Assembly (NCBI RefSeq): GCF_001677475.2
Contig: NZ_CP015229.1
Strand: one strand, 5' to 3'
Source of the DNA: Escherichia coli
Lineage (GTDB): Bacteria; Pseudomonadota; Gammaproteobacteria; Enterobacterales; Enterobacteriaceae
Length of the DNA: 64,000 nt
Shown here: in pieces, positions 44,412-48,390 of the stretch
How positions within the stretch are numbered: position 1 is the stretch's first letter
How the letters are laid out: each line of letters opens with the position of its first letter
The notes under the pieces: model-generated
Seen by the model: only the letters and a program-made list of their open reading frames with translations
Databases searched by the model: none
What the model was told of the DNA's origin: nothing
Translations under genes and position numbers: made by a program

Positions 44412-45314
44412 TTACTTAGCGCACTTCTTCACATCAATATTCCAGTTAGCACCAGACGCAACCTGATGTTTCTGCGCGAAATTAGCCATATTCAGCGCCA
44501 CGGAAACATTCAATAAGCTGTTCAGATACACCATCGGCTGTCCTTCCGGCACATCGCCGAAGCTTGCGACATACGGCATTTTCCCTGCGTATTTTTGCTG
44601 GGAACCTTCGGAAATGGTCACACACAACGTGTCGTTGAGTTTGATTCCTGCCTGATTCAGCAACTCGTCGCTGATATTGCTCCAGACGTTGCCGTACTGA
44701 ATATCGAGAATCGGGATATTGCCCTTCACTTCACCTTTTGTTGCTTTTGCTTTCTGATAAGAAAGTTCGACAACTTTTGCAGGAAGCTCTGGCCCCACCT
44801 GTTCGAACGTAATCGCCCCGGAAGCCAGACGCGCCCCTGTGTAGGCATATACATCGCGACCATGGAAGGTATATGACTTTTCGGAACCTTTCAGGCGGTT
44901 GGTTTTTTCATCGATTTGCCGGACGCTCTCAATACCCAGCGATTCCGCCACCAAAGTGAGCGTACCGTTATCCGGTGAAACGAAGTATTGACCGTTTTTG
45001 GTTTTCAGCACTACCGATTTACGGTCAGTGCCTACGCCCGGATCGACCACACTGACAAATACCGAACCTTGCGGCCAGTAGCTGGCTGTCTGATACAGGC
45101 GGTAAGCGCCTTCCCAGATGTTATACGGTGGAATTTCGTGTGTTAAATCAAATATTTTAAGATTATGGTCAACACCGAATGCGACCCCTTTCATCGCCGA
45201 GACGGCACCATCTTTCAGGCTAAAATCAGTTTGTAAAATCAAAGCGTTATCCGCATAAGCGGATGATGATCCCAGACACGTTAATAAAAATAACGTTGCG
45301 AGCGTTTTTTTCAT
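44412..45314 (-). CDS. Secreted DUF62 / SAM hydroxide adenosyltransferase-fold (fluorinase-chlorinase superfamily) protein
   Basis: 300-aa translation; N-terminal signal peptide MKKTLATLFLLTCLGSSSAYA; blocks LILQTDFSLKDGAVSAMKGVAFGV...DLTHEIPPYNIWEGA, FVSPDNGTL, YGNVWSNI, FGDVPEGQPMVYLNS align with conserved blocks of the family as I remember them from SalL-type proteins. Confidence 0.7.
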   Translation of the reverse strand: MKKTLATLFLLTCLGSSSAYADNALILQTDFSLKDGAVSAMKGVAFGVDHNLKIFDLTHEIPPYNIWEGAYRLYQTASYWPQGSVFVSVVDPGVGTDRKSVVLKTKNGQYFVSPDNGTLTLVAESLGIESVRQIDEKTNRLKGSEKSYTFHGRDVYAYTGARLASGAITFEQVGPELPAKVVELSYQKAKATKGEVKGNIPILDIQYGNVWSNISDELLNQAGIKLNDTLCVTISEGSQQKYAGKMPYVASFGDVPEGQPMVYLNSLLNVSVALNMANFAQKHQVASGANWNIDVKKCAK

Positions 45315-45396: not shown

Positions 45397-46161
45397 TTAA
45401 CCTTTCCGCTCGACGGAAATCATGGTAACAAAAGGATAGCGTTGCCACGGGATTGCCCCGCCTTTCATATACATATGTGAAATCGTGCCATCAAGATAAA
45501 GCAGCTGCTCAACGTTCAGTTTCGCTTTGGCATAACAGGCAAAATCATAAAAATTTGTCGCCTGCTGGCTCAACAAAAACACGGCGCTCCCTTGTTTATT
45601 AATCCCAACACCGTTACGAATTTTACGTGAGGCGACGTTGGGATGAATACGCGGATTAATTACGCCGTTTTCCATCAACATTGGCCCTGACTGCACCGCA
45701 AACTGAATCTCTTTACTGGTTTTGAAGGCATCCAGACGAACGATGCCGACTTTATCTCCCGCGACATAAAACACGCCGCCAGGACGGATAAAGAAATTCC
45801 CTTCACCTGAAGCGAGATTTAACGCCACCTTCTGCTGACCGTTTTCGATGTACAAACCGAGCGGCGCATAGCTTTCATCATAGATGCCGCCGTTCATCGC
45901 CATCTGCACCTGACCCTGACTATTCATATCCGCCAGCAGAGCATGTAACGTTCCCCACGCTTCGGCATTGGCTTTTTGCCAGTACATTTTCACCCGCTCT
46001 GTTTGAGGATTAACGGTATACGCCTGTACGGTCAGCGCCGGATCTGAGAGTGCGCAATCATCAGCGGCAACAGCAAACAAGGGAAGTAAGGTGAGGGCGA
46101 GAAAAATCCGTTTGAGATTCAAGGTGATCATTCCTTTACCAATGAGTAGCCGATGCGCCAT
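45397..46161 (-). CDS. yigE: DUF2233-family (phosphodiester glycosidase-like) secreted protein
   Basis: 254-aa translation with signal-like N-terminus ...LKRIFLALTLLPLFAVAA. Confidence 0.85.
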   Translation of the reverse strand: MAHRLLIGKGMITLNLKRIFLALTLLPLFAVAADDCALSDPALTVQAYTVNPQTERVKMYWQKANAEAWGTLHALLADMNSQGQVQMAMNGGIYDESYAPLGLYIENGQQKVALNLASGEGNFFIRPGGVFYVAGDKVGIVRLDAFKTSKEIQFAVQSGPMLMENGVINPRIHPNVASRKIRNGVGINKQGSAVFLLSQQATNFYDFACYAKAKLNVEQLLYLDGTISHMYMKGGAIPWQRYPFVTMISVERKG

Positions 46162-46377
46162 TATAGGTCCTGGATGTGGGATTTTTTTATCCTGTTAGCG
46201 ACCTTGACGAGTACCAAAAAGCGCGAAGTTCAACTATTGTTCTGTGGTGTTCTGTTGCGTGTTGACGGCAAAATTTTGCTGGCGTAACATGCGCGCACGA
46301 TCACTCTAAGAGGACATTCGCCTTGGACACACCCAGTAGATACTGGCTCACTATCCTGTCATCCAGGATCAACTCCT

Positions 46378-46405
46378 AAGGCTATCCCTTTTTGCTGATA
46401 GCCTT
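46378..46405 (+). promoter_or_regulatory. Stem-loop in the long corA 5' leader
   Basis: aaggctatc / gatagcctt 9-bp stem with 10-nt loop, about 125 nt upstream of the corA start. Confidence 0.35.
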
Positions 46406-46530
46406 AGCGGTTGTCAGCGACCTCAATTTTTCCCGTCGCGCTGAGTCAGGCTGTTTAATGGTCTGAAACCCAATTTGTTTCTGTGTGCCCACCGAACTGT
46501 CCGATATTTTAAGCATTGGGAGTCCCGGTC

Positions 46531-47481
46531 ATGCTGAGCGCATTTCAACTGGAAAATAACCGACTGACCCGGCTGGAAGTCGAAGAGTCACAACCCCTTG
46601 TAAATGCAGTATGGATTGATCTTGTCGAACCGGACGACGACGAGCGACTGCGCGTACAATCTGAACTTGGTCAGAGCCTGGCAACCCGCCCGGAACTGGA
46701 AGACATCGAAGCATCGGCACGTTTCTTTGAAGACGATGACGGCCTGCATATTCACTCCTTCTTCTTCTTTGAAGATGCGGAAGATCACGCCGGTAACTCC
46801 ACTGTGGCATTTACCATCCGTGATGGTCGTCTGTTTACTCTGCGTGAGCGTGAACTGCCTGCATTCCGTCTGTATCGTATGCGTGCCCGTAGCCAGTCGA
46901 TGGTAGACGGTAATGCCTACGAGCTGCTGCTGGATCTGTTCGAAACCAAAATCGAACAGTTGGCAGATGAAATTGAAAATATCTATAGCGACCTGGAGCA
47001 GTTGAGCCGGGTGATTATGGAAGGGCATCAGGGCGATGAGTACGACGAGGCGCTCTCCACGCTGGCGGAACTGGAAGATATCGGCTGGAAAGTTCGCCTG
47101 TGTCTGATGGATACCCAGCGCGCGCTCAACTTCCTGGTACGTAAAGCACGCTTACCGGGTGGGCAACTGGAGCAGGCGCGTGAAATCCTGCGAGATATCG
47201 AATCCCTGCTGCCGCATAACGAATCCCTGTTCCAGAAGGTGAACTTCCTGATGCAGGCGGCGATGGGCTTTATCAACATCGAGCAGAACCGCATCATCAA
47301 AATCTTCTCGGTGGTATCCGTCGTGTTCCTGCCGCCGACGCTGGTCGCTTCCAGCTATGGGATGAACTTTGAGTTTATGCCGGAACTGAAGTGGAGTTTC
47401 GGCTACCCTGGCGCGATTATCTTTATGATCCTCGCGGGCCTGGCACCGTATCTGTACTTTAAGCGCAAGAACTGGTTGTAA
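46531..47481 (+). CDS. corA: Magnesium/cobalt transport protein CorA
   Basis: Translation [31 protein letters not shown]..., 316 aa, C-terminal [11 protein letters not shown] motif. Confidence 0.95.
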
Positions 47482-47521: not shown

Positions 47522-47902
47522 TCAAAGGCTCCAGGTATTTAACCCTTTTACCTCTTTCTCATAAAACCATTTGTTCGTGTTAACAGCAACATAGGCTGCT
47601 ACGGCAATTCCCAGAATGTTAACGCCAATTAGTGCACCAACAAATAGAGATAGAATGCCAAGTAATAGAACTATAATTGCTTTTTTCCATAATCCTAGAA
47701 CAAATAAATAGATCCAGGAACAGAAGAAAGCAATGAAATTCATTTGAATAGTTAATCGTTGTCTTACTTTTAATGTTTTAAATGCTGCTTTATATTCTGG
47801 TGTTGCCCCCCAGAATCCAGGAAAGCCATGTTGATCATAAAAATTAAATCGGTATTTCCATTTTTCACTTAATGAACCATCGTTCATATATTCCTTACTC
47901 AT
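47522..47902 (-). CDS. yigF: Small inner-membrane protein of unknown function
   Basis: Translation MSKEYMNDGSLSEKWKYRFNFYDQHGFPGFWGATPEYKAAFK... with two TM segments; AT-rich. Confidence 0.8.
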   Translation of the reverse strand: MSKEYMNDGSLSEKWKYRFNFYDQHGFPGFWGATPEYKAAFKTLKVRQRLTIQMNFIAFFCSWIYLFVLGLWKKAIIVLLLGILSLFVGALIGVNILGIAVAAYVAVNTNKWFYEKEVKGLNTWSL

Positions 47903-47915
47903 AAATACACCATAA

Positions 47916-48296
47916 CTATTGTTTTGATGAATCAGTAGGTGCAAGCATTAGCATACTGAAAGTGGAAAAATAACAAATCAAAAAAATCATCGAACCATTG
48001 CCTGAACAATCAAAATGTTCGGCTATCATTGTGATGATAGAGATGATATATACTGCTAATGTACCAAAAACATAAGTTTTTATATATATGAAACCACTAT
48101 CACGGAGTCGTTGGCAATTCATGTTGATGACGAGATAATGGAGTGCGATGGTAGAGACAATAACAAGAAAACCTGCGTCCCCATCGTTAAAAAAGATAAT
48201 AAGAAAGGCAAAAATGAAATTTATTAAAATAAATGAAAATATATAACGACGTCTGGAAATCTTACCGTTAGATGTTGGGATAAATATACGCAACAT
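47916..48296 (-). CDS. yigG: Small inner-membrane protein of unknown function; start uncertain (could be 48332 or 48356)
   Basis: Translation ...[36 protein letters not shown]...; AT-rich. Confidence 0.75.
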
Positions 48297-48390
48297 AAAT
48301 TTTACATCCTTGTGTGAGTCTCCTGTCAGCATGGCAATATGCCCACTCTCATGCAAGAGTCGGCATATTTTTTCAGAATATATTTATTTT

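Follow-up and report, generated by a model that had tools for sequence, protein, structure and literature searches.

The yigE-corA spacer of an Escherichia coli genome very likely carries the known translation-coupled, Rho-dependent attenuator of corA

The corA leader in this Escherichia coli genome is in all likelihood a translation-coupled, Rho-dependent transcription attenuator, and the hairpin singled out in the original prediction is its ON helix. With equally high confidence, the flagged region corresponds to a regulatory leader that has been characterised before, that of corA with its upstream ORF (uORF) corL; it is real, and it is not new. The promoter, the uORF, the helices, their mutual exclusivity, and their conservation across the order are directly visible in the sequences compared here. 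The founding study of the Salmonella corA leader is reportedly that of Kriner and Groisman in 2015. Experimental dissections are available for two organisms, namely Salmonella (Kriner and Groisman 2017, PMC5314796) and E. coli (Vezina Bedard et al. 2024, PMC11552253). The leader in the window, by which we mean the whole analysed stretch of 64,000 nucleotides from contig NZ_CP015229.1 (assembly GCF_001677475.2), shares with the corA-corL leader of Salmonella enterica and E. coli the locus, promoter, uORF, stems A-E, Rho utilisation (rut) region, pause box, and termination zone. We found no substantive difference between the two. All positions below are those of the window, and all features are on its plus strand unless stated otherwise.

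Locus, promoter and extent of the leader

The genes at the locus are, with their direction relative to corA, uvrD (same), a SAM-hydrolase family gene (opposite), yigE (opposite), and corA itself. RefSeq annotates yigE, ysgD, and corA here. The start codon of the minus-strand gene yigE ends at 46161 and the corA ATG begins at 46531, so the ~370 nt originally predicted to separate the two genes are exactly 369 nt (46162..46530). The corA CDS (46531..47481) encodes 316 aa and has a Shine-Dalgarno (SD) sequence GGGAG at 46518-22. The spacer contains three further short ORFs, at 46153-46287 (+), 46382-46516 (-), and 46423-46548 (-). These were set aside as genes; they lie over unconserved DNA or antisense to conserved RNA helices.

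Positions 46100-46600 match many complete E. coli genomes at 100%, with at least 99% identity in 5441 of the 5443 matching records. The window sequence is identical to the E. coli sequences studied experimentally; the oligos of that study (PMC11552253) equal it except at deliberately mutated bases. The Salmonella coordinates map onto it base for base once a length difference is allowed for, the E. coli leader being 4 nt shorter, as it lacks 2 nt in the loop of stem D and another 2 nt in the stretch that runs from the pause box to the start codon. Given a leader identical to that of many sequenced E. coli, this strain would be expected to behave like K-12.

The promoter was located by a scan of 45900-46800, in which TTGACG-17-TAACAT is the sole sigma-70-like site. 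This corA promoter (46262..46290) has its -35 hexamer TTGACG at 46262-67, a 17-nt spacer, and its -10 hexamer TAACAT at 46285-90. For comparison we aligned the 300 nt preceding corA in 80 loci collected from other species of Enterobacterales. The alignment is poorly conserved before ~46253 and near-completely conserved from the -35 hexamer to the corA ATG. Both hexamers are approximately invariant in the 80 aligned regions, and each of the 79 loci with enough sequence has the motif GTAACATGCGC at 226-323 nt upstream of corA.

Because the conserved promoter sets the +1 at ~46297-46299, the corA 5' leader (5' UR; 46297..46530) is ~232-234 nt long. Thus, the long structured leader of the original prediction stands, but not its length of ~370 nt, and transcription starts ~232-234 nt upstream of corA rather than immediately in front of it. 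The rest of the 369-nt spacer is promoter DNA of the two divergent genes, and 46162-46261 is poorly conserved, divergent-promoter DNA. As to the exact +1, the sources differ by 2 nt. Setting it at A46297 puts the Salmonella mutations G24C25C26, G84G85C86, T97/C99, G105C106C107, and G121/G123 on the right bases. G46299 is implied by the E. coli oligos oFM4 (Ptet fusion) and corA41-71txR, and C46298 fits the letters of the published E. coli termination sites U211, G216, and U220. The leader has a whole-length fold of -79.4 kcal/mol (z = -3.45) and, like the known corA-corL leader, is of the 230-250-nt class, with a constitutive sigma-70 promoter directly upstream of corA driving its transcription.

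The uORF corL and the two exclusive conformers

The original prediction omitted the key element of the leader, the 18-codon uORF corL/ysgD at 46323..46379. This uORF is 57 nt long, has a TTG start and a TAA stop, and encodes the peptide MDTPSRYWLTILSSRINS. RefSeq calls it ysgD, and corL is its name in the literature (PMC11552253, PMC5314796). Its SD sequence AGAGGA (46309..46314) lies 8 nt upstream of the TTG. We aligned 78 leaders, 77 of them distinct, ranging from Escherichia to Yersinia, Serratia, Pectobacterium, Dickeya, Pantoea, Erwinia, Hafnia, and Edwardsiella. The corL ORF with a TTG start is present in all 78, has 17-19 codons in 77, and ends with TAA in 77. The GAGGA of its SD is invariant in the 78 leaders. 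Across the same leaders the N-terminus of CorL is conserved as MD(T/A)PS(R/K/T)(Y/C)WL. The C-terminal half is highly variable, yet the nucleotides there still keep hairpin A2 and stems A and C. Within codons 2-9, all seven degenerate third positions are invariant or at least 90% conserved.

This pattern bears on the reading that CorL/YsgD is a trans-acting small protein, acting for example on CorA or Mg2+ homeostasis, with the leader structure being incidental. The first nine residues are almost invariant across the order, and tagged YsgD accumulates to a level detectable on blots (10.1101/511675). However, the conserved N-terminal half is also invariant at its third codon positions, and this points to a constraint on RNA or codons rather than on the protein. 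The variable C-terminal half, in which the nucleotides preserve the A2, A, and C helices, speaks against a trans-acting peptide as well, and so do the published effects of corL, which are in cis (PMC11552253). We consider this reading highly unlikely.

The 9-bp stem-loop at 46378..46405, on which the original prediction was based, does exist. The segment AAGGCTATC (46378-86) is fully complementary to GATAGCCTT (46397-405), with a 10-nt loop in between. The helix extends to 11 contiguous bp (46376-86 / 46397-407) with a folding energy of -14.3 kcal/mol (z = -4.73), a stability that was reached by none of the 200 shuffles. Five outer bp (46370-74 / 46409-13) bring it to 16 bp in all, with -20.4 kcal/mol and z = -6.04. 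The stem is not a stand-alone hairpin, however. It belongs to stem-loop C (46370..46413), which is one arm of a two-state switch and represents the ON, anti-termination conformer. Stem C excludes stems A and B, as its 3' arm is the 5' arm of B and its 5' arm, which also carries the corL stop codon, is the 3' arm of A. The compensatory mutant pair M1/M2 of Salmonella (G84-86 / G105-107) maps to 46380-82 / 46401-03 in stem C, and the mutagenic oligos for the 'ON-state' of E. coli target exactly the stem C region.

The OFF conformer is composed of stems A and B. Stem A (46320..46382) pairs 46320-26 with 46376-82 and additionally GAGG 46310-13 with CCUU 46387-90, the latter covering the SD of corL. 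It closes a three-way junction, reproduced by folding, with hairpins A1 (46333-46346) and A2 (46353-46369), and A2 shows covariation at four of its six pairs (UA/AU/CG). Stem A brings the corL start codon region together with the corL stop codon region; hence, as in the known leader, the UUG-start corL is located inside stem A with its start and stop codons in the two arms. Stem-loop B (46392..46420) pairs 46392-403 with 46409-420 to form 12 bp with the loop TTAGC (-16.7 kcal/mol, z = -5.13). The Salmonella positions T97/C99 and G121/G123 map onto it.

Two more stem-loops are located downstream. Stem-loop D (46417..46439), which forms together with stem C, pairs GCGAC 46417-21 with GUCGC 46435-39 around a 13-nt pyrimidine-rich loop, CCUCAAUUUUUCC, and has its 5' arm in common with stem B. 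The Salmonella positions G121/G123 and C143/C145 map to it once the 2-nt loop indel is allowed. We rejected another register for this stem (46415-19 / 46439-43), which is just 79.6% paired and leaves one pair unpaired in 41 of the 77 sequences, whereas the accepted register has 100% of its cells paired and, given the 2-nt loop indel, agrees with the Salmonella M5/M6 coordinates. Stem-loop E (46446..46466) pairs UCAGGC 46446-51 with GUCUGA 46461-66 (-7.4 kcal/mol, z = -4.42). It corresponds to Salmonella 152-172, with T152C153, G155G156, and G166-C169 on matching bases. In all, every Salmonella mutation coordinate falls on the right base of the window. Two other candidate elements were inspected. 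A hairpin over the SD and start codon of corA (46512-46535) was rejected, as it is no better than shuffles (-7.7 kcal/mol, z = -0.63). A GAAAC/GUUUC hairpin at 46465-81 is conserved (97.6% paired) and alone is thermodynamically negligible (-1.2 kcal/mol, z = -1.05).

The predicted fold switches as the transcript lengthens. A transcript ending at 46420 folds into A+B (-40.0 kcal/mol, z = -3.18), and one ending at 46443 folds into C+D (-44.3 kcal/mol, z = -3.63). This exclusivity of A+B and C+D is a feature of the known corA-corL leader, as are the stem-loop E (46446-66) and the consensus pause site that follow the switch.

Both conformers are conserved among the 77 distinct leaders. The ON structure (A1, A2, C, D, and E) has 92.7% of its alignment cells paired, compared with 18-42% when the pairing is slid, and has 12 pairs with two-sided changes. 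The corresponding values for the OFF structure (A, A1, A2, B, and E) are 94.3%, 25-47%, and 8 pairs. By individual stem, the paired cells amount to 97-99% for A, 93.7% for B, 96.6% for C, 100% for D, and 94.3% for E. Two-sided changes occur at four pairs in C, for which the support goes well beyond chance, and at three covarying pairs in D, and E has three covarying pairs. The bases shared by B and C are instructive. With 46297 numbered as 1, A104->G gives a G.U pair in both B and C. In the case of G117->A, the pair in C is restored by C74->U, and the pair with U103 in B persists. Shared bases that vary solely as both helices tolerate are a mark of an element that is truly bistable. Across the sampled Enterobacterales, conservation thus covers the promoter, corL, and stems A-E, which modestly extends the published picture.

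Rho-dependent termination and other possible modes of control

The rut region is placed at 46385..46471 by homology to Salmonella 89-177 (PMC5314796) and includes the pyrimidine tracts CCCTTTTT (46386-93) and CCTCAATTTTTCCC (46421-34). Its composition of 28% C, 23% G, and 33% T is overall not markedly C-rich or G-poor. Judging from the sequence, Rho would bind at 46385..46471 in this strain. Downstream of it is the near-invariant pause box GTTTCTGTGTG (46477..46487), which fits the G-10 / Y-1 / G+1 consensus and in which T46486 corresponds to U192, the major RNA polymerase (RNAP) pause of Salmonella. The Rho-dependent termination zone follows at 46507..46533. The E. coli sites U211 and G216-U220 correspond to ~46507-46518, and the Salmonella site U240 falls on the corA start codon (46531-33). 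These sites come from in vitro assays (PMC11552253, PMC5314796) and are placed by numbering with a tolerance of +/-2 nt.

That Rho is involved, that corA is inversely related to corL, and that Mg2+ elicits a response is taken from the work published on the two organisms. In the Salmonella leader, stems A+B alternate with C+D, followed by stem E and by pauses at U192 and U240 (PMC5314796). There, stem B exposes the rut region 89-177, while C+D hide it and also suppress pausing at U240; stem E promotes the activity of Rho and moves termination to beyond the U192 pause (PMC5314796). In E. coli, Mg2+ regulation of corA (20 vs 50 uM) requires the 5' UR and not the promoter, and the signal for the leader is intracellular Mg2+ (PMC11552253). 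RNA polymerase ChIP gives E. coli corA a Rho termination score of 3.3, and Rho/NusG increase the in vitro termination seen at U211 and G216-U220 from 24% to 55% (PMC11552253). An OFF-locked E. coli mutant is silent, and an ON-locked mutant loses part of the regulation (PMC11552253). Changing the corL start codon from UUG to AGG raises corA expression and changing it to AUG lowers it, and corL-lacZ goes up 1.7-fold at higher Mg2+ (PMC11552253).

Combined with the helices described above, these data suggest the following mechanism. Transcription starts from the conserved sigma-70 promoter at ~46297-46299, and the first ~150 nt of RNA can fold in two exclusive ways. When corL is translated efficiently, ribosomes would occupy the 5' arm of stem C including the corL stop codon, such that stem-loop B (46392-46420) forms and the flanking pyrimidine tracts are left single-stranded. 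Rho would then load on these tracts, aided by stem-loop E, and terminate transcription at ~46507-46533, before or at the corA start codon. When corL is translated poorly, stem-loops C (46370-46413) and D (46417-46439) would bury the rut site, and RNA polymerase would read on into corA. In E. coli, higher intracellular Mg2+ means more corL translation and less corA expression. Among the sequence features of the leader, none was found to contradict this attenuator model. As to the original suggestion of post-transcriptional control of Mg2+ transporter expression, a long structured leader that regulates after transcription start is borne out (PMC11552253, PMC5314796), but control is not post-transcriptional in the classic sense, as it is mainly exerted through premature Rho-dependent termination inside the leader, i.e., by attenuation.

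The regulation left in two E. coli mutants points to additional inputs. A corL start-codon knockout (AGG) retains 1.3-fold Mg2+ regulation, and a Rho R66S mutant retains 2.4-fold compared with 3.3-fold in the wild type (PMC11552253). Other inputs are therefore to be expected, for example RNase III, RNA-intrinsic Mg2+ effects, or translation initiation. Three other modes of control deserve consideration against this background.

The termination observed might be intrinsic. Stem-loop B with the T-run behind it (46392-46420, then CCTCAATTTTT) would in that case act as an intrinsic terminator of a trp-type attenuator. A consensus scan does flag 46392-46420 with its tail as terminator-like, but it gave two such sites where 1.0 is expected by chance. 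Termination of ~24% is seen in vitro without Rho (PMC11552253), but the mapped products U211-U220 end ~90-100 nt downstream of stem B and double with Rho/NusG (PMC11552253). Moreover, the T-run is interrupted and begins 6 nt after the stem, and the tract is unconserved, reading CTTAAAAG, CGTTCTG, and TGTTTTTG at variable spacing in Serratia, Rahnella, and Pectobacterium. We rejected an intrinsic terminator at stem B, which is extremely improbable given the offset and unconserved T-run and mapped 3' ends ~90 nt downstream.

The residual Mg2+ regulation raises the question of whether the leader acts first and foremost as a riboswitch that senses Mg2+ directly, comparable to the 'Mg2+ sensor' proposed for mgtA, in which Mg2+ selects A+B over C+D and corL is secondary. 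The 1.3-fold regulation left in the corL-AGG mutant would agree with that (PMC11552253), and the architecture resembles the mgtA leader in having a uORF-containing three-way junction followed by alternative stems (PMC11552253). In Salmonella, Mg2+-dependent folding of the mgtA leader alone modulates Rho termination in vitro, according to a report that PMC11552253 cites. On the other hand, corL start-codon changes shift corA expression strongly in both directions, and the authors are uncertain whether Mg2+ alters how the corA leader is folded (PMC11552253). We ran cmscan on 45800-46900 against all 4227 families of Rfam 15 and obtained no Mg2+-sensing leader and no curated family at E <= 10; the output contained five sub-threshold chance matches (mir-76, AaHKsRNA54, tracrRNA, and two snoRNA families). 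Rfam includes the mgtA Mg sensor and the M-box/ykoK riboswitch, and the lack of a match at E <= 10 extends to them. A leader that is primarily a riboswitch is unlikely, although direct sensing of Mg2+ may be a secondary input, given the 1.3-fold regulation that survives without corL initiation.

It is also conceivable that the helices are mainly substrates of RNase III that set the half-life of corA mRNA, which would amount to purely post-transcriptional control of decay. Stem C offers a duplex of 16 bp and stem B one of 12 bp. Lim et al. in 2012 reportedly found that RNase III controls corA mRNA degradation in E. coli. But control of decay leaves the conserved uORF, the exclusive pairing, and the Rho effects unexplained. 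As the main function of the helices it is decidedly unlikely; RNase III decay is more likely an additional layer on top of the Rho-dependent attenuation.

A predicted long-range closure, and relation to other leaders

Folding of the whole leader suggested a further element. In the minimum-free-energy fold, C+D are enclosed by four predicted long-range helices. These pair GGACA 46312-16 with UGUCC 46498-502, UUCG 46317-20 with CGAA 46493-96, CACAC 46328-32 with GUGUG 46483-87 at the major pause, and CUGGCUCA 46343-50 with UGAGUCAG 46442-49, the last of which is the left arm of stem E. We tentatively propose that the ribosome-free (ON) leader may be closed by such conserved long-range helices, which would connect the 5' half and SD of corL (46312-46350) to boxes in the 3' part, although we rate this as possible rather than probable.

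When the 77 leaders were folded independently, the long-range helices had a pairing probability above 0.5 in 66-78% of them; hairpins A1 and E, which compete with these helices, did so in ~20%. Of the alignment cells of the long-range helices, 88% are paired compared with 21-37% when slid, figures that are to be read with the structure having been derived from one of the aligned sequences. RNAalifold gives GGA/UCC as the closing helix. Hairpin A1 explains just two of the seven conserved third positions in corL codons 2-9. The long-range partners are nearly invariant and hence offer few true compensatory changes, and in 310 of 500 shuffles the number of covarying pairs is matched. Beyond the Enterobacteriaceae, the CACAC/GUGUG helix is lost.

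If the closure were true, ribosome occupancy of corL would be physically coupled to how accessible the downstream rut dinucleotides are, to whether stem E forms, and to pausing of the polymerase. The 2017 Salmonella paper left unexplained the effect that C+D have on a pause over 100 nt away, noted that RNA coming out of the polymerase might pair with an upstream segment of the leader, and found that stem E is apparently not the predominant conformer in vitro (PMC5314796). A closed ON leader could explain both the effect of C+D on the distant pause and the non-dominance of stem E.

The corA leader has its closest parallel in the mgtA leader with mgtL, the Mg2+-responsive, Rho-dependent attenuator of Salmonella, and both control a Mg2+ importer. 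Each has a three-way junction enclosing a uORF and alternates between conformers, A+B vs C, of which one exposes the rut site; in each, translation of the uORF is inverse to expression of the downstream gene (PMC11552253). Nevertheless, no homology of sequence or structure is detectable between the two (no Rfam match). MgtL is rich in proline, but CorL contains just one proline, along with few acidic residues. Unlike mgtA, corA also responds to Mn2+, and in E. coli mgtA, in contrast to corA, no sign of Rho termination was detected (PMC11552253). More broadly, corA resembles the trp, his, and pheA leaders and the Rho-dependent tnaC and mgtCBR leaders in that the ribosome position on a leader ORF picks the helices and hence decides on premature termination. 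It differs from classical leader-peptide attenuators in using a Rho-dependent terminator rather than an intrinsic hairpin with a U-tract, and a shortage of a cognate amino acid is not obviously what it responds to.

The flagged stem-loop is therefore explained by published work, and the lead that remains is the predicted closure of the leader by long-range helices. In enteric bacteria CorA is the main Mg2+ channel, and for a long time it passed as constitutive. Its leader shows the cell tying Mg2+ supply to its translation status through Rho.

Constraint and compensation in corL

The short upstream ORF of the corA leader, corL (also ysgD; 46323-46379, plus strand, 18 codons with a TTG start), was inspected in an alignment of 78 Enterobacterales corA leaders, 77 of them distinct. 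In codons 2-9 of corL (codons 1-9 occupy 46323-46349 of the window), conservation at every degenerate third position is complete or reaches at least 90%. Synonymous variation is, by contrast, present in the first codons of corA, as in CTG/TTG/CTA, AGC/AGT, and GCA/GCG/GCT. Hairpin A1 within corL (46333-46346) accounts for only part of this third-position conservation.

The leader of Yersinia aldovae departs from the others at the end of corL. It lacks the TAA stop, the sequence there being CGAAGG, and the reading frame continues to 25 codons. The T-to-G change that removes the stop is offset by an A-to-C change in the other arm of stem C, the anti-termination helix (46370-46413), which stays perfectly paired. 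At the two alignment columns involved, 86 and 117, Yersinia aldovae has the sole GC pair.

The 3' half of the leader

Downstream, the conserved UGUCC box (46498-46502, in the 46498-46510 region of the window) could form a long-range pairing with GGACA (46312-46316) in the SD region of corL. The sequence AUAUUUU begins 3 nt 3' of the box, near the mapped termination site U211, and this U-tract is kept within the Enterobacteriaceae only. In vitro, termination without Rho amounts to ca. 24% in the E. coli corA leader, and U211 is among the mapped sites (PMC11552253). The putative UGUCC/GGACA pairing together with AUAUUUU would resemble, in its geometry, a terminator whose hairpin is built by long-range pairing.

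Four Pantoea leaders (L067, L069, L078, and L081) have a right arm of stem E (46446-46451/46461-46466 in the window) that is changed or lacks recognisable alignment, and carry an extra hairpin-like insertion of about 20-40 nt upstream of the UGUCC box. The leader of Serratia sp. Ag1 reaches 323 nt through an insertion of about 75 nt in its 3' half. The Pantoea and Serratia changes indicate a leader whose 3' half is far less fixed than its switch region.

The neighbourhood of corA

Directly downstream of corA, strains differ from one another. The window has yigF/yigG-type genes (DUF2628/YigG; 47522-48356, minus strand), whereas the O157:H7 record (L001, 3924-5501) has in their place DUF943 and DUF3289 genes and, after these, a second "CorA family" sequence, a truncated pseudogene. 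On the other side, uvrD and yigE flank a gene for a 300-aa product (44412-45314, minus strand), which RefSeq labels as a SAM hydrolase/SAM-dependent halogenase (S-adenosyl-L-methionine hydroxide adenosyltransferase) family protein; the N-terminus of its product is signal-peptide-like. Coverage of the 5.1-kb segment 44300-49400 reaches 80% or more in just 3650 of the 5426 E. coli genomes, which indicates that some of this neighbourhood varies between strains.
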